Below are positions 1,119-25,676 of a stretch of DNA of 64,000 bases, one piece after another. This DNA comes from Escherichia virus TH57. The stretch lies in sequence record MT446422.1; one strand, written 5' to 3'. Below the pieces are notes generated by a model, which saw only the letters and a program-made list of their open reading frames with translations, was not told the origin of the DNA and ran no database searches. The stretch's first letter is position 1, and the number at the start of each line of letters is the position of its first letter. The translations under genes were made by a program, and so were the position numbers.

Positions 1119-2932
1119 CAATTGAAAACGAAATTGAAGGATTGATTCATAAAACTAATAAAGACCTTTTAAACGAGAATGCTAATAAAGATTCTCGTGT
1201 TTTTCCAACTCAACGTGACCTTATGGCTGGTATTGTATCTAAACACATTGCCAAAAATATGGTCGCGTCTTTTATTATGAAAGCACATGAAAGCGGAATT
1301 ATTCATTTCCATGATATTGATTATTCCCCTGCTCTTCCATTTACTAATTGCTGTTTAGTAGATTTAAAAGGAATGCTTGAGAACGGATTTAAGCTTGGTA
1401 ACGCACAGATTGAAACTCCTAAATCAATTGGTGTTGCTACTGCAATTATGGCACAAATTACTGCACAGGTTGCTTCTCACCAATATGGTGGAACGACTTT
1501 TGCTAATGTAGACAAAGTATTTTCTCCTTATGTTAAACGTACATACGCAAAACATATTGAAGACGCAGAAAAATGGCAAATCACTGATGCATTGAATTAT
1601 GCCCAATCTAAAACAGAAAAAGACGTATACGATGCATTCCAAGCTTATGAATACGAAGTAAATACTCTCTTTAGTTCAAACGGACAAACGCCTTTTGTAA
1701 CCATTACATTTGGTACGGGAACTGACTGGACTGAACGAATGATTCAGAAAGCAATTCTGAAAAATCGTATCAAAGGTCTTGGTCGCGATGGGATAACTCC
1801 TATTTTCCCTAAACTTGTTATGTTCGTTGAAGAAGGTGTTAATCTTTATAAAGACGACCCGAACTATGATATTAAGCAGCTTGCTCTAGAGTGTGCAAGC
1901 AAAAGAATGTATCCTGATATTATTTCAGTTAAGAATAATAAAGCTATCACCGGTTCATCTATTCCTGTTTCTCCAATGGGTTGCCGTAGTTTCTTGAGCG
2001 TATGGAAAGATTCGACTGGTAATGAAATTCTTGATGGACGTAATAATCTTGGCGTTGTAACACTGAATCTTCCTCGTATTGCATTAGATTCTTATATTGG
2101 AACACAGTTCAATGAACAGAAATTTATCGAATTGTTTAATGAGCGAATGGATTTATGTTTTGAAGCATTGATGTGCAGAATTAGTTCCTTAAAAGGAATT
2201 AAAGCGACTGTTGCTCCTATTCTTTACCAAGAAGGTGCGTTCGGGGTTCGTCTTAAACCTGATGATGATATAATTGAGTTATTTAAAAACGGTAGAAGTT
2301 CAGTGTCTTTGGGATACATTGGTATTCACGAATTGAATATTCTTGTCGGTCGTGATATTGGGCAGGAAATTTTAACTAAAATGAATGCTCGTCTTAAGCA
2401 GTGGACCGAAAGAACCGGTTTTGCTTTTAGCTTGTATTCTACTCCCGCTGAAAACCTTTGTTATCGATTCTGTAAACTTGATACTGAAAAATATGGAAGT
2501 GTAAAAGATGTTACCGATAAAGGATGGTACACTAACAGTTTCCATGTTTCAGTAGAAGAAAATATTACTCCGTTTGAAAAGATTTCTCGCGAAGCACCAT
2601 ATCATTTCATTGCGACAGGTGGTCACATTTCTTATGTTGAACTTCCTGATATGAAAAATAACTTAAAAGGTCTTGAGGCTGTATGGGATTATGCTGCACA
2701 ACATTTAGATTATTTTGGTGTTAATATGCCAGTAGATAAATGTTTTACGTGTGGAAGTACCCATGAGATGACTCCTACTGAAAACGGATTTGTTTGTTCT
2801 ATTTGTGGAGAAACTGACCCTAAAAAGATGAACACAATAAGAAGAACATGCGGCTATCTTGGAAACCCGAACGAACGCGGATTTAATCTCGGCAAAAATA
2901 AAGAAATCATGCATAGGGTTAAACACCAATGA
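1115..2932 (+). CDS. nrdD: Anaerobic ribonucleoside-triphosphate reductase, large subunit
   Basis: 605 aa, as in T4 NrdD. C-terminal zinc ribbon CFTCGS...CSICG and glycyl-radical motif RRTCGYLG. Contiguous, with no intron. Confidence 0.95.
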   Translation: MTIENEIEGLIHKTNKDLLNENANKDSRVFPTQRDLMAGIVSKHIAKNMVASFIMKAHESGIIHFHDIDYSPALPFTNCCLVDLKGMLENGFKLGNAQIETPKSIGVATAIMAQITAQVASHQYGGTTFANVDKVFSPYVKRTYAKHIEDAEKWQITDALNYAQSKTEKDVYDAFQAYEYEVNTLFSSNGQTPFVTITFGTGTDWTERMIQKAILKNRIKGLGRDGITPIFPKLVMFVEEGVNLYKDDPNYDIKQLALECASKRMYPDIISVKNNKAITGSSIPVSPMGCRSFLSVWKDSTGNEILDGRNNLGVVTLNLPRIALDSYIGTQFNEQKFIELFNERMDLCFEALMCRISSLKGIKATVAPILYQEGAFGVRLKPDDDIIELFKNGRSSVSLGYIGIHELNILVGRDIGQEILTKMNARLKQWTERTGFAFSLYSTPAENLCYRFCKLDTEKYGSVKDVTDKGWYTNSFHVSVEENITPFEKISREAPYHFIATGGHISYVELPDMKNNLKGLEAVWDYAAQHLDYFGVNMPVDKCFTCGSTHEMTPTENGFVCSICGETDPKKMNTIRRTCGYLGNPNERGFNLGKNKEIMHRVKHQ

Positions 2933-3399
2933 ATTACGATAGAATATATCCTTGCGATTTTATTAATGGTCCTGGCTGCAGGGCCGTTCTTTTCGTTACA
3001 GGTTGTTTGCATAAATGCGAAGGGTGTTATAATAAATCAACATGGAATGCTAGAAATGGTGTTCCATTCACTGGTGAAACACTAGAACAATTAATTGAAT
3101 GTTTGAATAATGATTATATAGAAGGATTGACTATAACTGGAGGAGACCCTCTCTATCCCGATAACCGAGATGTTATTCACTCTGTGGTTCAAACTATTAA
3201 AAATCTTTATCCCAATAAAAGCATTTGGTTGTGGACCGGATATAAGTTTGAAGATATTAAACAACTAGAAATGCTTAAATATGTTGATGTTATTATTGAT
3301 GGGAAGTATGAGAAAAATCTTCCGACCAAAAAACTGTGGCGAGGGTCAGATAATCAGCGACTTTGGTCAAATACCGATGGGGTGTGGAAACATGATTAA
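2929..3399 (+). CDS. nrdG: Anaerobic ribonucleotide reductase activating protein (radical SAM)
   Basis: 156 aa. CLHKCEGC = CxxxCxxC radical-SAM cluster motif. ATGA overlap with nrdD. Confidence 0.9.
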   Translation: MNYDRIYPCDFINGPGCRAVLFVTGCLHKCEGCYNKSTWNARNGVPFTGETLEQLIECLNNDYIEGLTITGGDPLYPDNRDVIHSVVQTIKNLYPNKSIWLWTGYKFEDIKQLEMLKYVDVIIDGKYEKNLPTKKLWRGSDNQRLWSNTDGVWKHD

Positions 3400-3513
3400 A
3401 TTTAATTATATTATGGACACTATAAATGATATGATTTTTCATTTTGGTCCAGAATTTTATTCGCAGTATAGTTTAGTGTTTATCAATGCTTGGTTAATCA
3501 ATTAAGGGTAAAT

Positions 3514-3729
3514 ATGAATAAATTTCGTAATGCTACAGCAGATATTCTGGCAAACATAACGCTTGTGTTGTTCATCGTTTGTCTGCTTATTCTGGCTATC
3601 CCGTTTGGTTTACTGTTTGTTATCATCGGTTGGTTAAGCACCAATCCTGGCCTAGAAAGCTCTGAATTCAACAAACGAATCCAGGCTATTCATAGTACCA
3701 TTGCAAAAATGATGAAGGTGAAAGAATGA
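3514..3729 (+). CDS. small membrane protein (71 aa)
   Basis: ATG 3514 preceded by TAAGGG SD. Long hydrophobic stretch ANITLVLFIVCLLILAIPFGLLFVIIGWL. The ORF-track start 3490 is a non-ATG extension. Confidence 0.55.
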   Translation: MNKFRNATADILANITLVLFIVCLLILAIPFGLLFVIIGWLSTNPGLESSEFNKRIQAIHSTIAKMMKVKE

Positions 3730-4025
3730 AACGTTTTGAAGAATATGTAGCTACTAATTGGACCGCGTGGGACAAATTCGGTGATGAATGGTACTTCCAC
3801 GACTGTGACCTGGACCCGAAATTCTTTGCTGATAAAGAAGAAGACCTTAAAGATATCTATGCTCTATCTGAGATTCATGGAATCAAACCGACGGTTTATT
3901 TCTCTTTCAATGACACAGGTTTCCTTATTCAGGTTTATGTCCCGTATGCAACCGCCAGCGATGAAGAAGTTATTAAAACCTGGAACTACCAAGGAGTGAT
4001 TTCCTGTGGGCCAAAACTCGACTAA
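3726..4025 (+). CDS. hypothetical protein (99 aa)
   Basis: ORF track. ATGA overlap with upstream ORF. Confidence 0.6.
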   Translation: MKRFEEYVATNWTAWDKFGDEWYFHDCDLDPKFFADKEEDLKDIYALSEIHGIKPTVYFSFNDTGFLIQVYVPYATASDEEVIKTWNYQGVISCGPKLD

Positions 4026-4323
4026 GATTGAAATTTATGGTATCCCCGAAGAAGTCGGTCGATGCCCTGGTTGTATGCACGTAAGGAGCCTTCTGGGCTC
4101 CTTAAACCTTCCTTATACATTCTATTCAGTCCTTAACAAACAAGGCTCTGAAATCGCTTATGACAGGCCTTTAATCATGTCTTTGGCTAAGCGTGCTGGA
4201 TATCCTACCCTTAACATTCGTTACCCAGTGATTTTTGTCAATGATGAAAAAATGACAAATATTCCTGCCTTTAAAACAAAACTGATATCCCTGGGGTACG
4301 ACCAGGACTTAATTGAAGATTAA
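4006..4323 (+). CDS. glutaredoxin/thioredoxin-fold redoxin (NrdH/NrdC-like)
   Basis: IEIYG...CPGC active-site CxxC near the N-terminus and YPVIFVND (cis-Pro region). Size and position next to nrdG/nrdD as for T4 nrdH. GTG 4006 start behind AAGGAG (3990-3995). Confidence 0.6.
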   Translation: MGQNSTKIEIYGIPEEVGRCPGCMHVRSLLGSLNLPYTFYSVLNKQGSEIAYDRPLIMSLAKRAGYPTLNIRYPVIFVNDEKMTNIPAFKTKLISLGYDQDLIED

Positions 4324-19009: not shown

Positions 19010-20188
19010 ATGTCTATTGCAGATTTGAAATCCCGTTTGATTAAAGCTTCTACATCCAAAATGACTGCGACTCTTACTAAGTCCAAGTTTTTTAATGATA
19101 AAGATGTAGTTCGTACAAAAATCCCGATGCTGAACATTGCAATCAGCGGTGCACTAGATGGTGGTATGCAGTCAGGTTTGACTATTTTTGCTGGTCCGTC
19201 AAAACACTTTAAATCCAATATGGGTTTAACGATGGTCTCTGCATATATGAACAAATACCCCGAAGCAATCTGTTTGTTCTATGATTCAGAATTTGGTATC
19301 ACAGAAGCCTATCTGCGTGCAATGAAAGTAGACCCGGAGCGTGTTATCCACACACCAATCCAGTCGGTTGAACAATTGAAAGTTGATATGGTTAACCAGC
19401 TTGAAGCAATTGAGCGTGGTGAAAAAGTCATTATCTTTATTGACTCAATCGGTAACATGGCGTCAAAAAAAGAAACAGAAGATGCGATGAACGAAAAAGT
19501 CGTTGGCGATATGACTCGTGCTAAATCCCTGAAATCTCTGTTCCGTATTGTTACCCCATATTTTAGTATCAAGGATATTCCTTGTGTCGCGGTTAACCAT
19601 ACAATCGAGACGATTGAGATGTATAGCAAAACCGTTATGACCGGTGGTACAGGTGTTATGTATTCTGCGGACACCGTATTCATTATCGGCAAACGCCAGA
19701 TTAAAGAAACTGGTAAAGAACTTGAAGGTTTCCAATTTGTTCTGAATGCCGAAAAATCTCGTATGGTCAAAGAGAAAAGTAAATTCTTCATTGATGTAAA
19801 ATTCGATGGTGGTATTGACCCGTATTCTGGCCTGCTTGATATGGCAATGGAAATCGGATTTGTAGTGAAACCGAAAGTTGGTTGGTATAACCGTGAATAT
19901 CTTGATGTTGAGACCGGTGAAATGGTCCGCGAAGAAAAATCATGGCGTGCAAAAGATACTAACTGTACTGAATTCTGGGGCCCGTTGTTTAAGCACGAAC
20001 CTTTCCGTGACGCAATCAAACGCCATTACCAACTGGGTGCAATCGATAGCAATGCTGTTGTTGATGCCGAAGTTGATGCGCTTATTGCCTCCAAGGTTGA
20101 AAAATACTCTGCCCCTGAAGGTAAGGCAAAACCATCTGCGGCAGATATCGAAAACGATTTAGATATGATGGAAGACCTTGATGAATGA
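19010..20188 (+). CDS. uvsX: Recombinase UvsX (RecA-like)
   Basis: 392 aa. DLKSRLIKASTSK, Walker A GPSKHFKS, KSWRAKDTNCTEFWGPLFKH and an acidic C-terminus match recalled T4 UvsX. Confidence 0.97.
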   Translation: MSIADLKSRLIKASTSKMTATLTKSKFFNDKDVVRTKIPMLNIAISGALDGGMQSGLTIFAGPSKHFKSNMGLTMVSAYMNKYPEAICLFYDSEFGITEAYLRAMKVDPERVIHTPIQSVEQLKVDMVNQLEAIERGEKVIIFIDSIGNMASKKETEDAMNEKVVGDMTRAKSLKSLFRIVTPYFSIKDIPCVAVNHTIETIEMYSKTVMTGGTGVMYSADTVFIIGKRQIKETGKELEGFQFVLNAEKSRMVKEKSKFFIDVKFDGGIDPYSGLLDMAMEIGFVVKPKVGWYNREYLDVETGEMVREEKSWRAKDTNCTEFWGPLFKHEPFRDAIKRHYQLGAIDSNAVVDAEVDALIASKVEKYSAPEGKAKPSAADIENDLDMMEDLDE

Positions 20189-20522
20189 TATCGATTTATC
20201 TGATTTAGATAATTTCGAGAAAGATGCGGAGGGAGCTAAGGCTCCTTCTGTGCCTTACTACGAAAAAAGTTTGGAGATTATCCGGCAATCCATGGGAACC
20301 GTACGACAGGAAATTCTGTTATCACTCCCTGATGGGTCCAATCACATTGTGTACGTAACCGGAATTAAAATTGAACCATCTGGAAAAGTTTCCGTTGATT
20401 TCGGCACCCCTTCTGAAGACCGCAAAGCGGAGCTTGCAGTGCATGTAGAAAAGTGTGTTACAATGCAAATACAAGATGAAATTGATAAGATTAAAATGAA
20501 AAAGAGGTGGTGGAAGTGGTAG
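20181..20522 (+). CDS. 40: gp40-position protein (head vertex assembly chaperone in T4)
   Basis: 113 aa ORF between uvsX and 41, as T4 gene 40. Assignment is by position and size only. ATG 20181 (the track gives TTG 20178). Confidence 0.5.
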   Translation: MNDIDLSDLDNFEKDAEGAKAPSVPYYEKSLEIIRQSMGTVRQEILLSLPDGSNHIVYVTGIKIEPSGKVSVDFGTPSEDRKAELAVHVEKCVTMQIQDEIDKIKMKKRWWKW

Positions 20523-21946
20523 AAACTATTTTATCCCAGCTACTCTTTAACAAGGAATATTTTGTTAAAGTCTGGCCATATCTTAATAACACATATTTTG
20601 AAAAGGGTCCAGCAAAGACCCTTTTTAATACGATTAACGAACACGTAAAAGAATATCAAGCGGTACCAACTAAGACTGCACTTGATATCGCGCTCGACAG
20701 TTCTGACCTTTCTGAAGTCGAATATGAAGGCACAAAGAAACTCTTAGGAGTCCTGGCCGATACTCCAGAAGACCAGGAATGGTTGGTCAAAGAAACCGAG
20801 AAGTATGTACAGAAGTCTGCGATGTTCAATGCCACATCCAGGATTATCGAAATCCAGAGTAATGCCGAACTTCCAAAAGATAAACGTGATAAACGAATCC
20901 CAGATATTGGGGCTATCCCTGACATCATGCGCGATGCATTGTCCATCTGTTTTGACTCTGCTCTGGGGCATGACTGGTTAAACGATTACGAAGCTCGATT
21001 CCAGACTTATCTGAACAAATCGAAGAAGGTTCCGTTCCGTATTAACATCCTGAATAAAATCACGAAGGGTGGAGTTGAGTACGGCACAGAGAACGTTTTA
21101 CTGGCCGGGACAAACGTCGGCAAATCCCTTGGACTTTGTTCGTTAGCGGCTGACTATCTTCAGACTGGTCATAACGTGCTTTATATAAGCATGGAAATGG
21201 CTGAAGAAGTATGTGCCAAACGTATTGATGCCAACTTGTTGGATGTATCTCTGGATGATATTGATGAAGGTCATGTGTCATGGGCAGAATACAAAAGTAA
21301 GATGGAAAAATGGCGTGCTTCCGGGACTCTCGGGACTCTGAAGATAAAACAATATCCAACTGGGGGCGCGCATGCGGATACCTTCCGTGCATTACTGAAC
21401 GAGTACAAACTGAAGCAAGGATTTGTACCGGATGTGATTATTGTTGACTACCTGGCAATCTGCGCAAGCTCAAGACTGAAAACGTTTACCGAAAACAGTT
21501 ACGGCCTGATTAAGATGGTTGCAGAAGAACTTCGTGGTCTGGCGGTCGAGAAAAATGTGGTCCTGTGGACTGCAGCACAGACAACCAGGGGCGCAAACGT
21601 TGCAGCTGAGATTGACATGGCTGACATCGCAGAATCCTTTGGTATTGCTCACACGGCTGACTTTATGTTGGGTGTTGTTGAGACCGAAGAATTCGCTCAA
21701 ATGGGACTGCAGTTAATCAAACAGCTTAAGTCTCGTTATGGCGATAAGAACTACTATAATAAATTCAAGATGGGTGTTAAGAAAGGTAATCAACGCTGGT
21801 ATGAGGTTGATGATGATTCAGCTCCTAAACAAGGCCCTACGGTGAAAGAAGCCACTGGTGAGATGAATCGTCAGGCTGAAATGAATAGACAAACCAGGGT
21901 CAACAGGAGCGACCTGGATGACCTTGCCGCTCAAATGAAATTTTAA
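20507..21946 (+). CDS. 41: Replicative DNA helicase gp41 (DnaB-like)
   Basis: About 476-479 aa. ILSQLLFNKEYFVKVWPY, Walker A GTNVGKS, YISMEMAEEVCAKRIDAN, SRYGDKN. GTG start (20507, or 20516 which aligns with T4 MVEIILSH). Confidence 0.95.
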   Translation: MVEVVETILSQLLFNKEYFVKVWPYLNNTYFEKGPAKTLFNTINEHVKEYQAVPTKTALDIALDSSDLSEVEYEGTKKLLGVLADTPEDQEWLVKETEKYVQKSAMFNATSRIIEIQSNAELPKDKRDKRIPDIGAIPDIMRDALSICFDSALGHDWLNDYEARFQTYLNKSKKVPFRINILNKITKGGVEYGTENVLLAGTNVGKSLGLCSLAADYLQTGHNVLYISMEMAEEVCAKRIDANLLDVSLDDIDEGHVSWAEYKSKMEKWRASGTLGTLKIKQYPTGGAHADTFRALLNEYKLKQGFVPDVIIVDYLAICASSRLKTFTENSYGLIKMVAEELRGLAVEKNVVLWTAAQTTRGANVAAEIDMADIAESFGIAHTADFMLGVVETEEFAQMGLQLIKQLKSRYGDKNYYNKFKMGVKKGNQRWYEVDDDSAPKQGPTVKEATGEMNRQAEMNRQTRVNRSDLDDLAAQMKF

Positions 21947-21958
21947 AATATTTTAAAA

Positions 21959-21978
21959 GGGGCTTACAGCCCCTTTTT
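21959..21978 (+). terminator. rho-independent terminator after gene 41
   Basis: GGGGC-TTACA-GCCCC plus T5. Confidence 0.75.
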
Positions 21979-21991
21979 CTTATGTTATAAT
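21962..21991 (+). promoter_or_regulatory. early promoter overlapping the terminator (PeSL-like)
   Basis: -35 GCTTACA is the terminator loop, 17-nt spacer, TATAAT 21986-21991. Leader CCTATCAACTACTGGAGAATAAA-ATG. Confidence 0.65.
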
Positions 21992-22017
21992 GACCCTATC
22001 AACTACTGGAGAATAAA

Positions 22018-22335
22018 ATGAAAACTATTGATTGCAAAGCGGAATACAAAGTTTATTATCATGGCTCAAGCTCTAATGCTGGAATCCAAAATATGCTTTG
22101 CCCTCCTGATGCAACTGGTGTTCTGTCAGAAGTTGGGCGCAAGAAAAATTTAGGGCGTGTGTTTTTTACTGAAGATATTGGTTTGGCCCGTATCTATGCA
22201 GGAAGAGCAGCTCGCTCGTATGGAGGAGAACCCCGTCTTTATCGTGTGATTGCACCTGTTGACGTGGTTTGTTTAAATGATACTAAAGGTGCTACAGTTT
22301 ATCACGCTGACTGGGCCTTCTGTGAGGAAATCTAA
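22018..22335 (+). CDS. truncated ADP-ribosyltransferase-fold protein (Mod/Arr-like mini-ART)
   Basis: 105 aa. YYHGS...(29 aa)...GRVFFTEDIGLARIYAG parallels LYRGV...(22 aa)...GRITSFTEDYGIARDFAA of the Mod-type ART at 29063 in this window, with Arg->His and Ser->Phe at motif positions. Ends before the ExE region. Has its own early promoter. Confidence 0.45.
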   Translation: MKTIDCKAEYKVYYHGSSSNAGIQNMLCPPDATGVLSEVGRKKNLGRVFFTEDIGLARIYAGRAARSYGGEPRLYRVIAPVDVVCLNDTKGATVYHADWAFCEEI

Positions 22336-22548
22336 ATGTATAAATTAGAGAACGTAGTGTTTATTGGTTGGTTTGAAAATGGTAATATGTTTACCAAAGA
22401 AACTGCACTAGATGTTAGCGACCAAAATATGATTGAATGGGTCACAGTGCAGTATGCAGAAGTGAATAATGCGCTGGTGAAAGCCTTTGTTAATGACAAT
22501 AAAGTTTTTGAATATGATTATCGTATCCACTTATCTGAGGAAATCTAA
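22336..22548 (+). CDS. dmd: Dmd (discriminator of mRNA degradation; antitoxin against RnlA/LsoA)
   Basis: 70 aa. VVFIGWFENGNMFTKE...YAEVNNALVKAFVNDNKV matches recalled T4 Dmd (VVFMGWFKNESMFTKE...YAEVNKALVKAFIDDKKV). Adjacent to 41, as T4 61.5. Confidence 0.8.
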   Translation: MYKLENVVFIGWFENGNMFTKETALDVSDQNMIEWVTVQYAEVNNALVKAFVNDNKVFEYDYRIHLSEEI

Positions 22549-22890
22549 ATGGCTTTTAATCCAGAAGACCGCGTAAAAGTAACAATCAAAGTGAGTGCTG
22601 TTGGTGTACCATCTTTTGAACGTTCTAGCATGTTCCACCCAGCAGGTATTCACTGGTATGTCCAGAAGACTGCTGATAACTATAATGCACTGGTTGAAGC
22701 TTTTGTTGATGACAAGCTAATTCATAAAGTAGACATGCGTAAGGGTACTGCATTGCGTAATCTGATTTTGACCGTTGAAGCTCAACTGGTAAATGAAGAA
22801 ATCTGCCTTACTGATATTGAAGCAGCTCTTCATATTGCGCGTGCTGAATATTACAACTTGACTGGTTTTTCAGTTGAAGGCGAAAAATAA
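22549..22890 (+). CDS. Dmd-like paralog (113 aa), position of T4 61.4
   Basis: ADNYNALVEAFVDDKLIHKVDMR parallels AEVNNALVKAFVNDNKVFEYDYR of the preceding gene. The identical 16-nt junction TGAGGAAATCTAAATG precedes both genes. Confidence 0.55.
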   Translation: MAFNPEDRVKVTIKVSAVGVPSFERSSMFHPAGIHWYVQKTADNYNALVEAFVDDKLIHKVDMRKGTALRNLILTVEAQLVNEEICLTDIEAALHIARAEYYNLTGFSVEGEK

Positions 22891-22920
22891 GTGTACAACA
22901 AAGGGATAATGCTGTATATT
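22891..22920 (+). promoter_or_regulatory. early promoter (sp unit)
   Basis: GTGTACA 22891-22897, 17-nt spacer, TATATT 22915-22920. Hairpin GGGATAAT/ATTATCCC 22903-22925 spans the -10. Confidence 0.6.
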
Positions 22921-22948
22921 ATCCCTATCAACTACTGAGGAGATTGAA

Positions 22949-23242
22949 ATGAAAAAGTTATTAATTGCAGCAATTCTTACCGTAGCATCATGTGGTACAG
23001 CTCCAGTTACTGCTGGGCTTGATAAAGACCTTTGTGAGTGGTCTATGACCGCTGACCAGACTGATGTTGAACATCAGATTTATGCTGATATCATGAACAT
23101 AACTAAACGTGACCGTCCTGATATGGTTAAAGAAGTGTCTGACCAACTGGCTTCTGGTGACGTTATGCAGTATAACTATGTTCTGTATTGCGATGCTTCA
23201 TTCGACAACAGCAAAATTGTTCAATGGGTTACAGGTGAATAA
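22949..23242 (+). CDS. sp: Spackle (periplasmic inhibitor of gp5 lysozyme; superinfection exclusion)
   Basis: 97 aa, as in T4 Sp. Signal peptide. DKDLCEWSMTADQTDVE...VMQYNYVLYCD matches recalled T4 61.3. Confidence 0.8.
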   Translation: MKKLLIAAILTVASCGTAPVTAGLDKDLCEWSMTADQTDVEHQIYADIMNITKRDRPDMVKEVSDQLASGDVMQYNYVLYCDASFDNSKIVQWVTGE

Positions 23243-23243
23243 A

Positions 23244-23681
23244 ATGATTAACAGAAATTTGGTTATCAAAAAACTTCGCTGTAAAAATCCAAATGCGCAA
23301 GCATACAGAGTGTTTTGGAGCGACGAGATTCAATATCTGGGTTATTTTCTTGTTGACAGTGATAATAGAATTACGTTTGCTCATAAGCTTCTTAACAAAG
23401 AATTAAACCATTGGCAAGAACTTATTGCAGTCAAGTCTAAATTATTTTCATGCAATGCAATGCACCAATTGGTTTATTTTTTCGCTGATGGTATTCCTGA
23501 CAAGGTTGAGTTTGAAGGGTTTGAATTTAAAGACATCAATCCAGACAATGAATTGAATAATGATGTTGTTAATATGGGTATCCCTGGTAAGTACATCAAA
23601 AACAGTCTTTTGAAAATTCTGGAAAATCCTGTTTATTCAGTTGACGACCAAATTTTTAATGCCTTTATGAAGCGAGATTAA
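23244..23681 (+). CDS. hypothetical protein (145 aa) with DDQIFNAFMKR tail
   Basis: ATG 23244 just after the sp stop (the track ORF extends back over sp). The C-terminal 12 aa are shared with the next ORF. Position of T4 61.2/61.1. Confidence 0.6.
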   Translation: MINRNLVIKKLRCKNPNAQAYRVFWSDEIQYLGYFLVDSDNRITFAHKLLNKELNHWQELIAVKSKLFSCNAMHQLVYFFADGIPDKVEFEGFEFKDINPDNELNNDVVNMGIPGKYIKNSLLKILENPVYSVDDQIFNAFMKRD

Positions 23682-23682
23682 T

Positions 23683-24039
23683 ATGAGTTATTATAATTTT
23701 CTGAATTTTGAACTGGCCAGCAATAATGATGGTAATGCTCGTTATGAATTTCGTGAGCCTCGGTTTAATCAGGCGATTGGTTATATTATCGTTAAAGATG
23801 ATGTTATCATAAAGGCTCGCTCATTTATGGTAATGGATGGACCTTATGAAGATACTCGTGGATACCCATTTGATAAAAAGAATGTGCGCGATTGCGCAAT
23901 CTGGATAACTGGGAACCCTGAAATTGGGGTCATGATATCTACTGAAGCGAATGACATTCTGGAAGGGGTAGCCAAAGCTCAAGAACCGCCTACTGATATT
24001 GATGACCAGATTTTTAATGCCTTCATGAAGCGAGGTTAA
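23683..24039 (+). CDS. hypothetical protein (118 aa) with DDQIFNAFMKR tail
   Basis: ORF track. C-terminus IDDQIFNAFMKRG versus VDDQIFNAFMKRD in the upstream ORF. The 43-nt junctions are about 88 percent identical. Confidence 0.6.
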   Translation: MSYYNFLNFELASNNDGNARYEFREPRFNQAIGYIIVKDDVIIKARSFMVMDGPYEDTRGYPFDKKNVRDCAIWITGNPEIGVMISTEANDILEGVAKAQEPPTDIDDQIFNAFMKRG

Positions 24040-24632: not shown

Positions 24633-24647
24633 TGAAATGAGGAAACT

Positions 24648-25676
24648 ATGTCATATATTGATAAAGAATTTGCGGTCAGAGCTTTATCGTATCAACCACG
24701 TTATAGAGAAGTCACCGGGAGCACATTTAAAGCAAACTGTCGTTGTAAGGTTTGCGGGGACTCCCAGAAAGATTCACATAAGGCTCGATTCTGGGCGTAT
24801 ACCAATCCGTCTGATGGTGCGGTTTACGTGAAATGTTTTAACTGTGACTACTCCACGCATATAAGCAAATACATAAAAGAGTTTGAGCCGGATTTGCACC
24901 GGGAATATATGGTTGAGAAGTACAAGGAAAATGCCTTCGGTCGACAACGTAATGAAGTTGCAGAAACTCCGAAAGAACCAGAAAAAACTCCGGTTATTGA
25001 AGAGCTTGCTTTTTGCGAAAGAATCGATACTTTACCAGAAGCACATCCGATAGTTAAGTATGTGAAAAGTCGGTGTATTCCGAGCAATGTTTGGAACCGG
25101 TTATGGTTTACAAACAAATGGCCTGCATTAGTTAACTCCGTTAATCCTGGGACGTATAAGAATGAAACGAATGAACCACGCTTGGTTATTCCTATCTTCA
25201 ACGGCAAAAAAGAAATCGAATCTTTCCAAGGACGAGCTCTTCGCAAAGATGCACCACAAAAATATATCACAATCAAAGCTCACCCAGAAGCTTCCAAAGT
25301 CTATGGCGTAGACAAGATTGATGAGCGCAAGCGCGTGTGGGTAATGGAAGGTCCGATTGATAGTTTGTTTATCCCTAACAGCATTGCGATAACCGGTGGA
25401 ACATTAGCATTGGAAGCCGTTCCTTATGCTGAAACCCGAGTATGGGTAATGGACAACGAGCCAAGACATCCGGATACGATTAAACGTATGAAGAAACTCG
25501 TTGAAGCTGGCGAAGCTGTTATGTTCTGGGACAATGCACCATGGCATACGAAAGACATAAATGAGATGGTTAAATCGGAGGGTGCAACCCCTGAACAAAT
25601 CGAATCATATATGGCCGATAACGTTGCTCAAGGGCTGATGGCGAGAATGCGACTTTCGAAGTACGCAAAAGTTTAG
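24648..25676 (+). CDS. 61: DNA primase gp61
   Basis: 342 aa, as in T4. Zinc ribbon CRCKVCGDS...CFNC. EPRLVIPIFN, TOPRIM EGPIDSLF, DNEPRHPDTIKRM, MRLSKYAK. Confidence 0.96.
   Translation: MSYIDKEFAVRALSYQPRYREVTGSTFKANCRCKVCGDSQKDSHKARFWAYTNPSDGAVYVKCFNCDYSTHISKYIKEFEPDLHREYMVEKYKENAFGRQRNEVAETPKEPEKTPVIEELAFCERIDTLPEAHPIVKYVKSRCIPSNVWNRLWFTNKWPALVNSVNPGTYKNETNEPRLVIPIFNGKKEIESFQGRALRKDAPQKYITIKAHPEASKVYGVDKIDERKRVWVMEGPIDSLFIPNSIAITGGTLALEAVPYAETRVWVMDNEPRHPDTIKRMKKLVEAGEAVMFWDNAPWHTKDINEMVKSEGATPEQIESYMADNVAQGLMARMRLSKYAKV

Follow-up and report, generated by a model that had tools for sequence, protein, structure and literature searches.

The window analysed here, a 64,000-nucleotide stretch of Escherichia virus TH57 (sequence record MT446422.1), is that of a Gaprivervirus-like T4-type phage and encodes, between gene 41 and dmd, a protein of 105 amino acids that we call mini-ART. 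Its predicted structure makes it near certain that mini-ART is a complete single-domain, six-strand ADP-ribosyltransferase (ART) fold, and sequence profiles make it equally near certain that its family are phage relatives of Arr; the modelled fold is just as close to the nicotinamide adenine dinucleotide (NAD+)-binding lobe of KptA/Tpt1. The family is under strong purifying selection and is better conserved than the replication core of the phages that carry it. We consider it probable, though far from assured, that mini-ART is an active, NAD+-using early effector that takes part in counter-defence or host takeover by acting on a conserved host or defence-related target, its catalytic activity and the class of its target being what we infer from the lines of evidence set out below. 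The gene is as follows.

22018..22335, + strand: mini-ART coding sequence (CDS), an ATG open reading frame (ORF) of 105 amino acids, PHROG 2110; Arr-like mini ADP-ribosyltransferase-fold protein

An AlphaFold2 model of mini-ART built on 39 homologs reached a predicted local distance difference test score (pLDDT) of 89.2 and a predicted template modelling score (pTM) of 0.79. The model has strands at residues 13–18, 48–51, 72–78, 84–87, 94–97 and 100–104 and a long helix at 54–68, that is, the six-strand split beta-sheet of the ART superfamily with the NAD+ motif on strands 1 and 2. In a Foldseek search of the PDB, the Arr entries 2HW2 and 9IAF came first (probability 1.0, template modelling score 0.62), followed by KptA and cholera-type toxins; a fold search of BFVD returned T4-like orthologs along with a phage entry that bears the name ‘Ms Rifampin ADP-ribosyl transferase’ (E = 5e-8). 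The ART fold proposed in a first-pass annotation of this DNA is therefore borne out, with only ARTs at the top of the fold search. That annotation had also quoted the residues correctly (YYHGS, GRVFFTEDIGLARIYAGRAARSYGGEPRLYRVI and the C-terminal WAFCEEI); it was mistaken in letting the protein end before the strand that carries the E-x-E motif, as all six core strands are present in the model and nothing is truncated.

The kinship with Arr is visible in sequence once the family is sampled broadly. A profile built from 40 diverse copies of the domain (A3) matched, among 177,635 PDB sequences, only Arr-ms (2HW2/9IAF, E = 1.9e-4) and Arr-2 (9IBA, E = 2.4e-3), pairing His15, Phe49 and Thr51 of mini-ART with His19, Tyr49 and Thr51 of Arr; a profile of close homologs (A1) had no match among the PDB sequences. 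The resemblance to Arr that the first-pass annotation had pointed out is thus real at the level of sequence profiles. The window protein itself falls short of the 25-bit cut-off of Pfam Arr-ms (PF12120), which two of its relatives pass (P0173 with 29.4 bits and P0124 with 26.9 bits). The Arr alignment spans Arr residues 13–82, and the Pfam Arr-ms alignments end at model position 66–67 of 99. We take the active-site residues of Arr-ms to be His19, Tyr49 and Asp84, and the C-terminal part of Arr presumably forms the rifampin site. Measured against this H-Y-D triad, mini-ART keeps the His, has Phe for Tyr and has no equivalent of Asp84: of the positions that could correspond, 87 is Asn, Ser or Asp and 88 is variable, with no conserved acid.

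These limits make it very unlikely that mini-ART is a genuine Arr, an antibiotic ART of the rifamycin type that shields the RNA polymerase of the infected host from a small-molecule inhibitor. Arr is the sole solved family that is reached by sequence, and some GenBank orthologs are labelled ‘rifampin ADP-ribosyl transferase’; against this, about 40 C-terminal residues of Arr are left unmatched, Asp84 is unconserved and Tyr49 replaced, and a lytic lifestyle on enterics, Aeromonas, Acinetobacter and Vibrio offers no obvious selective reason for such a gene. Rifampin is an unlikely substrate of mini-ART.

We aligned 217 sequences of the family (111 close T4-like and 106 distant representatives). 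His15, Gly16, [ST]17, Pro29, Pro30, Glu38, Arg41, Phe49, Thr51, Ala57, Tyr60, Ala61, [RK]63, Gly69, Gly70 and Gly91 are near-universal. Four groups of codons in the window mark the parts of the putative site.

22060..22068, + strand: codons of His15-Gly16-Ser17, the H-G-[ST] NAD+-binding motif on beta-strand 1; His15 aligns with Arr-ms His19
22129..22140, + strand: codons of Glu38-Val-Gly-Arg41, in a family-specific basic insert between beta-strands 1 and 2; a gap in the Arr alignment
22162..22170, + strand: codons of Phe49-Phe50-Thr51 on beta-strand 2, with Arr-ms Tyr49 (the ‘Y’ of H-Y-D) opposite Phe49 in the alignment and Arr Thr51 opposite Thr51
22288..22296, + strand: codons of Gly91-Ala92-Thr93 at the start of beta-strand 5, the usual position of the ART catalytic Glu/Asp/Gln

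His15 is present in 215 of the 217 sequences, Gly16 in 216, Glu38 in 211 and Arg41 in 213; position 49 is Phe in 215 and Tyr in 2, and position 51 is Thr in 214 and Ser in 3. The insert, L-S-E-x-G-R-K-K-N-L, is a candidate substrate-binding or phosphate-binding element. Position 93, which according to the model would be the canonical catalytic position, is Thr (65), Ser (44) or Gly (2) among the close T4-like sequences; the distant ones have Thr (52), Glu (18), Ser (15), Asn (5) or Asp (5), so that about a quarter of the distant members have Glu, Asp or Asn. As aligned, the resulting motif, H-[F]-x-T followed by Thr/Ser, belongs as a variant with the Arr/KptA type (H-Y-D, H-H-h) and not with the R-S-E type of Alt and Mod: in place of Arg, S-x-S and E-x-E, mini-ART has His15, F-F-T and G-A-T. 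What had been read as Arg-to-His and Ser-to-Phe substitutions is instead the native H-[Y/F]-x-T of the Arr/KptA lineage, near-universal in a family of several hundred sequences.

The ratio of nonsynonymous to synonymous substitution rates (dN/dS) of 0.07–0.11, with dS > 1, indicates strong purifying selection on mini-ART. In the same phage pairs, mini-ART is 85–90% identical, compared with 68–79% for gp41, around 70% for UvsX and 61–69% for gp61 (window 22018–22335 against 19010–21946 and 24645–25673); in comparison with an Acinetobacter phage, mini-ART is 66% identical and the comparison proteins are 61% and 56% identical. Recent horizontal transfer was considered as a cause of the high identity and is ruled out by dS > 1. 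It is unusual for an accessory early gene to be better conserved than the replication core, and this, together with the purifying selection, excludes a decaying paralog.

The paralogs in question would be the two Mod-type genes that lie about 7 kb downstream in the window. Both ORFs, 29063 and 29635, are Alt/Mod-type ARTs that match PHROG 832, ‘RNA polymerase ADP-ribosylase’ (E = 9e-28 and 2e-38), and it had been suggested that mini-ART aligns with their NAD-binding core and might be a degenerate copy of one of them. Only one 17-residue stretch is common to mini-ART and ORF 29063 (GRV-FFTEDIGLARIYA compared with GRITSFTEDYGIARDFA), with a pairwise BLASTP E value of 0.002. The comparison with shuffled sequences that the first-pass annotation proposed gave a marginal result for this ORF (Smith–Waterman score of 43 compared with 25.9 ± 4.2 for shuffles, 14 of 3,000 of which reach the score) and nothing significant for ORF 29635 (BLASTP E = 0.14; 82 of 3,000 shuffles), for which the best local alignment falls in a different region. 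As far as these alignments go, the similarity to Mod reflects at most common membership of the superfamily, in the motif of strand 2 and the helix. In favour of a Mod/Alt paralog, decayed or duplicated, in which the catalytic Arg and Ser are gone, one could cite the resemblance to ORF 29063 around F-T-E-D-x-G-x-A-R. Yet mini-ART found no match to PHROG 832 in the PHROG search, although both Mod ORFs match it strongly; its nearest relatives are Arr and KptA; and its conservation exceeds that of core replication genes at a dN/dS of about 0.1. We therefore reject a Mod origin, which has next to no chance of being correct.

The family as a whole is already catalogued. Mini-ART matches PHROG 2110 (function unknown) over its full length (E = 1e-58), a collection of 5.8 billion proteins holds 115 cluster representatives that are 52–98% identical to it, and by tblastn it is present in 609 phage records, almost all of them from Straboviridae, which answers the question about distribution among T4-like phages that the first-pass annotation had raised. 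The hosts of these phages include Escherichia, Klebsiella, Acinetobacter, Aeromonas, Enterobacter and Vibrio, among others; the plasmid collection searched contained no copy. A few GenBank records call orthologs ‘putative ADP-ribosyl transferase’ or ‘rifampin ADP-ribosyl transferase’, and the fold assignment, given this sporadic ART or Arr-like annotation, is not new. A 100% identical ortholog in Escherichia phage UPEC01 (MW233709.1, 42061–42375) is annotated ‘clamp loaded subunit DNA polymerase’, a label that appears to be shifted or erroneous. We found no experimental work on the PHROG 2110 family in the literature. Iyer et al. 2022 had almost certainly noticed the family; as far as our searches show, the literature contains no description of its H-F-[TS] site, its basic insert, its extreme conservation or its non-obligate linkage to Dmd.

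Beyond the single-domain phage proteins, an exhaustive phmmer search of 1.84 billion representatives gave 162 matches. Of those listed, 54 are longer than 200 amino acids, with a maximum of 3,924, and carry the domain embedded in a larger protein. A Pfam scan of these 54 multidomain relatives found Arr-ms matches at E ≤ 0.001 in 31 (best, 1.8e-9), and of three scanned singly, two scored above the curated cut-off and one just below. Partner domains, in proteins of 870–3,924 amino acids, include ART-PolyVal (8 proteins), NUDIX (3), GNAT, Toprim, CHAP, a lambda-type portal, a minor tail protein, DdrB-ParB and a 2H/Acb1-like phosphoesterase, the same range of domains as in the ‘polyvalent proteins’ of phages (Iyer et al. 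2017, PMC5512222). By analogy, such giant proteins would be delivered in few copies, which favours an enzyme over a stoichiometric binder.

This point bears on whether mini-ART could instead be a non-catalytic binder of NAD+ or of ADP-ribose (ADPR) derivatives, a sponge or decoy that sequesters ADPR isomers of the Thoeris type or shields NAD+. Several features are consistent with such a binder: H-G-S and F-x-T are kept while the canonical catalytic acid is Thr or Ser, the protein is small, expressed early and encoded in a counter-defence neighbourhood, and its very high conservation would fit the recognition of an invariant small ligand. We nevertheless think a sponge unlikely. The domain occurs singly in the giant multidomain proteins, presumably a matter of few delivered copies, and about a quarter of the distant members have Glu, Asp or Asn at the catalytic position. 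ARTs of the KptA and H-Y-I types are active without a catalytic Glu, and we know of no sponge with an ART fold.

Certain domain orders recur among the giant proteins of uncultured phages. In one protein of 1,955 amino acids (P0120), ART-PolyVal is followed by the Arr-like domain and then by NUDIX, and a second protein (P0142) has the Arr-like domain at the same position; in P0121, a lambda-type portal precedes the Arr-like domain and a 2H/Acb1-like phosphoesterase follows it; and P0128 combines ART-PolyVal with the Arr-like domain, two distinct ART families side by side in one polypeptide. The domain is also present, in a C-terminal or internal position, in ORFs of 618 and 850 amino acids on two jumbo-phage contigs, of 230 kb and 461 kb, and on a further contig of 62 kb (2447–4303 in both L073 and L074; 3455–6007 in L072).

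In the window, the mini-ART gene opens an early transcription unit that also contains dmd. The following elements surround it.

20507–21946: gene 41 (helicase), after which the mini-ART gene comes next
21955..21977, + strand: intrinsic-terminator-like hairpin, AAAAGGGGCT-TAC-AGCCCCTTTT plus a T run; ends the uvsX-40-41 unit
21963..21991, + strand: putative early sigma-70-type promoter overlapping the terminator; CTTACA, a 17-nucleotide spacer and a TG-extended TATAAT, 10/12 matches
22008..22011, + strand: Shine–Dalgarno sequence GGAG, read from the sequence, with the ATG 6 nucleotides downstream
22336..22548, + strand: dmd; Pfam Dmd E = 3e-20, PHROG 2102, product 57% identical to T4 Dmd (BLASTP E = 5e-23)
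22549..22890, + strand: Dmd-like paralog of 113 amino acids; PHROG 23762 E = 2e-64, same early unit
22949–23242: spackle, downstream of the Dmd-like paralog

The hairpin is G+C-rich, with a 10-bp stem containing five GC pairs and a loop of three, and is symmetric, so that it scores on either strand. In T4, which has no gene at this position—as the first-pass annotation had supposed—gene 41 and dmd are separated by a gap of only 58 bp, and this gap carries a comparable early promoter (GTTTACA ... TATAGT). The presence of a promoter at the same position in T4 indicates that the site at 21963–21991 would serve the whole early dmd unit, with mini-ART as its first gene. The terminator and promoter earlier described as a cassette of the gene’s own are thus there, in the form of a hairpin and a promoter-like site, but are not private to it. 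The TAA stop codon of mini-ART directly abuts the ATG of dmd (TAAATG, zero gap), and dmd is co-transcribed with mini-ART in one early operon. Across 21500–23300, the window shares 97% identity with Escherichia phage EAWsc9 (Gaprivervirus) and 96% with VR20.

Other features of this neighbourhood deserve mention. The product of 22549–22890 matches the Dmd PHROG more weakly (E = 9e-6) and Pfam Dmd below threshold (19.1 bits, cut-off 27); its residues 30–65 resemble Dmd and are followed by a C-terminal extension, and the pair of dmd and Dmd-like paralog is also present in two other loci (L012 and L032). Further downstream, two adjoining + strand ORFs at 23241–23681 (PHROG 8539) and 23683–24039 (PHROG 4122) have in common the tail DDQIFNAFMKR[D/G], which shows a weak, sub-threshold match to the C terminus of Pfam AdfA, anti-DarT factor A (E = 3e-4, 20.6 bits compared with a cut-off of 27). 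The tail looks like a C-terminal module common to differing N-terminal bodies, at the position of T4 gene 61.2; in EAWsc9, the counterparts of the two ORFs are annotated ‘serine/threonine protein kinase’ and ‘DUF2528’. Within the mini-ART gene itself, an antisense ORF of about 40 codons (about 22040–22160, − strand) recurs in 31 loci and is most simply read as a shadow of a highly conserved coding sequence rather than as a gene.

The junction with dmd raises the question of whether mini-ART is one half of a toxin–antitoxin pair. Dmd is an antitoxin against RnlA/LsoA, and bacterial ART toxins with antitoxin partners are common. Iyer, Burroughs, Anantharaman and Aravind 2022 (PMC9503650, section 3.7.1) predicted from context a ‘novel type-II T-A system’ in phages of Escherichia, Shigella and Salmonella that consists of ‘p0068-family ART + Dmd’, and placed p0068 in the H-Y-[EDQ] clade. 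The description fits the locus exactly, with a predicted ART immediately upstream of dmd, and p0068 is presumably PHROG 2110. In such a type II pair, the ART would modify RNA and Dmd would restrain it.

We therefore examined linkage in 66 IMG/VR loci that carry mini-ART (found with A1), in which Dmd was sought by an iterated hidden Markov model (HMM). Dmd lies directly downstream of mini-ART in 10 of these loci, and no Dmd-like ORF was found within 4 kb in the other 56; even in the gene 41–61 context, about half of the loci are without Dmd. Conserved adjacency of the pair, seen in the window, is therefore not a property of the family, and this weakens the published proposal. The TAAATG junction within one early operon and the recurrence of the arrangement in Mosigvirus, Dhakavirus and Gaprivervirus records remain in its favour. 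Small early genes are, however, tightly packed as the norm in T4-like genomes; T4 carries dmd without the ART; Dmd has an established, separate target; the genes that follow mini-ART in RB16, Matisse, Konradin, phiAS4 and PEi20 fall into unrelated families (PHROG 7619, PHROG 7668, spackle-like) or into none; and the link between p0068 and PHROG 2110 is itself presumptive. Taken together, a toxin role for mini-ART with Dmd as its antitoxin is improbable.

Outside the dmd context, mini-ART occurs in a range of settings. In RB16, Slopekvirus and Aeromonas phages, a 291-amino-acid PHROG 7439 protein flanks it on one side and small ORFs on the other, with srd and rnlB further downstream; in Acinetobacter phages it is near 61.1, and in Vibrio phages of roughly 100 kb and 149 kb its settings are unrelated. 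Two distant stand-alone homologs sit on contigs shorter than 1 kb that give no context. We looked for a partner gene conserved across all contexts and dropped the idea after neighbour clustering, which found none, the largest ‘cluster’ being the antisense shadow ORF within mini-ART. The gene thus behaves as an autonomous module. The PHROG 7439 protein (about 291 amino acids, no Pfam match) is the sole recurrent neighbour outside Tevenvirinae and immediately precedes mini-ART in Pseudotevenvirus, Slopekvirus and Aeromonas T4-like phages (L002, 1567–2469; L004, 1683–2438; L007, 1593–2462; and further loci L028–L031, L036–L038, L052, L053, L055, L065 and L067).

Some of these contexts, together with the fold, bring KptA/Tpt1 into view. 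The modelled mini-ART matches the KptA/Tpt1 (PF01885) NAD+ lobe in structure, and the solved Tpt1 lobes, LYHGT ... YVHLSxD ... A ... G.R, run parallel to YYHGS ... RVFFTED ... A ... GR in mini-ART. By sequence, mini-ART has no KptA Pfam match, and three Tpt1 NAD+ lobes score 5–7 bits against A3, compared with 25 bits for Arr. A KptA/Tpt1-like, phosphate-directed enzyme of RNA end-healing would use NAD+ to remove or cap 2′- or 5′-phosphates of RNA and, together with the RNA ligase of the phage, would counter host nucleases that attack anticodons or mRNA. Besides the motif parallel, a gene position 1–2 kb upstream of rnlB (RNA ligase 2) in Pseudotevenvirus and Slopekvirus speaks for such an enzyme, as do one relative fused to a 2H phosphoesterase and the NUDIX domain in 3 of the 54 scanned multidomain relatives; 2H phosphoesterase and NUDIX enzymes process ADPr>p, the product of KptA (PMC9503650). 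On the other side, the RNA lobe with three of the four tetrad residues is absent from what is a single 105-amino-acid domain, the profile signal is 6 bits compared with 25 for Arr, and neither the window nor most other contexts show linkage to rnlB. T4-type repair by Pnkp and Rnl1, moreover, makes no 2′-phosphate junctions. An end-healing role is, on balance, quite unlikely.

We return to mini-ART as an active early effector. The protein would be made immediately after infection and would consume NAD+ catalytically. The NAD+ site would consist of His15-Gly-Ser, Phe49 and Thr51, with Phe49 stacking on the nicotinamide in place of Tyr, as in the H-Y-E clade, and the ADP-ribose would go to a highly conserved target, either of the host or connected with defence. 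The invariant Glu38, Arg41, Lys43, Tyr60 and Arg/Lys63 probably form the acceptor site. A protein side chain may be a less likely acceptor than a phosphate or hydroxyl group on a nucleic acid or on a small molecule: the lack of a fixed catalytic Glu, as in KptA and in mono-ARTs of the H-Y-I type, and the invariant basic insert favour a non-protein acceptor of this kind, although this preference is the weakest step of the proposal. The early promoter, the neighbouring dmd, the weak AdfA-like tail nearby and the precedent of AcrIF11, reportedly an ART of small size from phages that puts a defence complex out of action (PMC12421852), suggest a role in counter-defence or host takeover, which would be independent of Dmd. 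Among the three options of the first-pass annotation—a minimal H-type ART with a non-protein target, an NAD-binding decoy and a degenerate Mod paralog—the first is the best.

Several observations weigh against an active effector of this kind. T4-like members have Thr or Ser at the third catalytic position and Phe in place of the Tyr, so that transferase activity could have been lost; relative to Arr, Tyr49 is replaced and Asp84 has no conserved equivalent. The link to Arr needs a broadened profile, as the single sequence and A1 fail where A3 succeeds, and the single mini-ART sequence has no match in Pfam (E ≤ 10), NCBIfam, PADLOC or PDB sequences. The median isoelectric point (pI) of T4-like members is 7.6, a near-neutral charge that disfavours nucleic-acid binding, and we dropped net charge as a hint of such binding for this reason. 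Finally, the other domains of the polyvalent proteins may each be a weapon in its own right and so say little about substrate.

A more specific form of the proposal can be offered only tentatively, and we rate it as possible but on the unlikely side. Mini-ART may represent a new catalytic class, in which a His-Phe-Thr/Ser site combined with a Glu38/Arg41/Lys43/Arg63 acceptor site ADP-ribosylates a non-protein acceptor, for instance a terminal phosphate on a nucleic acid or an immune signal derived from a nucleotide, and thereby shuts down a defence pathway of the host. If this were true, it would amount to a new enzymatic counter-defence mechanism across the T4-like phages of enterics, Acinetobacter, Aeromonas and Vibrio, and a non-protein-acceptor class would explain conservation above that of replication proteins. 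The model case of a host taken over by ADP-ribosylation is that of the T4-type phages, with Alt, ModA and ModB as the enzymes. Mini-ART would be a fourth ART, of another clade and absent from T4, which may explain why it has attracted no experimental attention. Its presence in 609 phages, its tighter constraint than helicase, recombinase and primase, and its counter-defence neighbours make it a well-defined and cheap candidate with which to find a new ADP-ribosylation target. Two readings are also corrected here: mini-ART is not a decayed Mod copy, and the published reading of a toxin–antitoxin pair with Dmd is unsupported by gene linkage.

Among known systems, Arr is the closest by sequence. 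It has in common with mini-ART the Y-H-G-[ST] of strand 1, the [YF]-x-T of strand 2, the helix that follows and the G-G ... hydrophobic strand 3; at about 143 amino acids it is longer than the 105 of mini-ART, the part beyond position 82 being without counterpart, and it lacks the L-S-E-x-G-R-K-K-N-L insert and the helix residues Tyr60 and Arg63 of the mini-ART family. KptA/Tpt1 shares with mini-ART Y-H-G-T, V-[HF]-x-[ST]-x-D and the helix G-x-R and, like the mini-ART family, does without a catalytic Glu, as would suit a nucleophile that is a phosphate; its N-terminal RNA lobe, 90–100 extra residues that hold three-quarters of the R-H-R-R tetrad (Arg-His-Arg), is missing from mini-ART. T4 Alt, ModA and ModB (PHROG 832) have the same superfamily fold and are likewise early or injected phage ARTs that use NAD+, whereas their R-S-x-S ... 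E-x-E, compared with H-F-T, sets them in a different clade. In polyvalent proteins, ART-PolyVal (PF18760, HYD2) is a different ART family from mini-ART, and the domains sit in giant proteins, whereas mini-ART of the window is a free-standing early product that does not belong to any virion protein. The target of AcrIF11, an anti-CRISPR ART of phages and plasmids, is a protein, the type I-F CRISPR–Cas complex, and AcrIF11 belongs to different phage groups and hosts; its likeness to mini-ART is, as far as shown here, functional, and as such it provides a precedent for a catalytic mini-ART in counter-defence.

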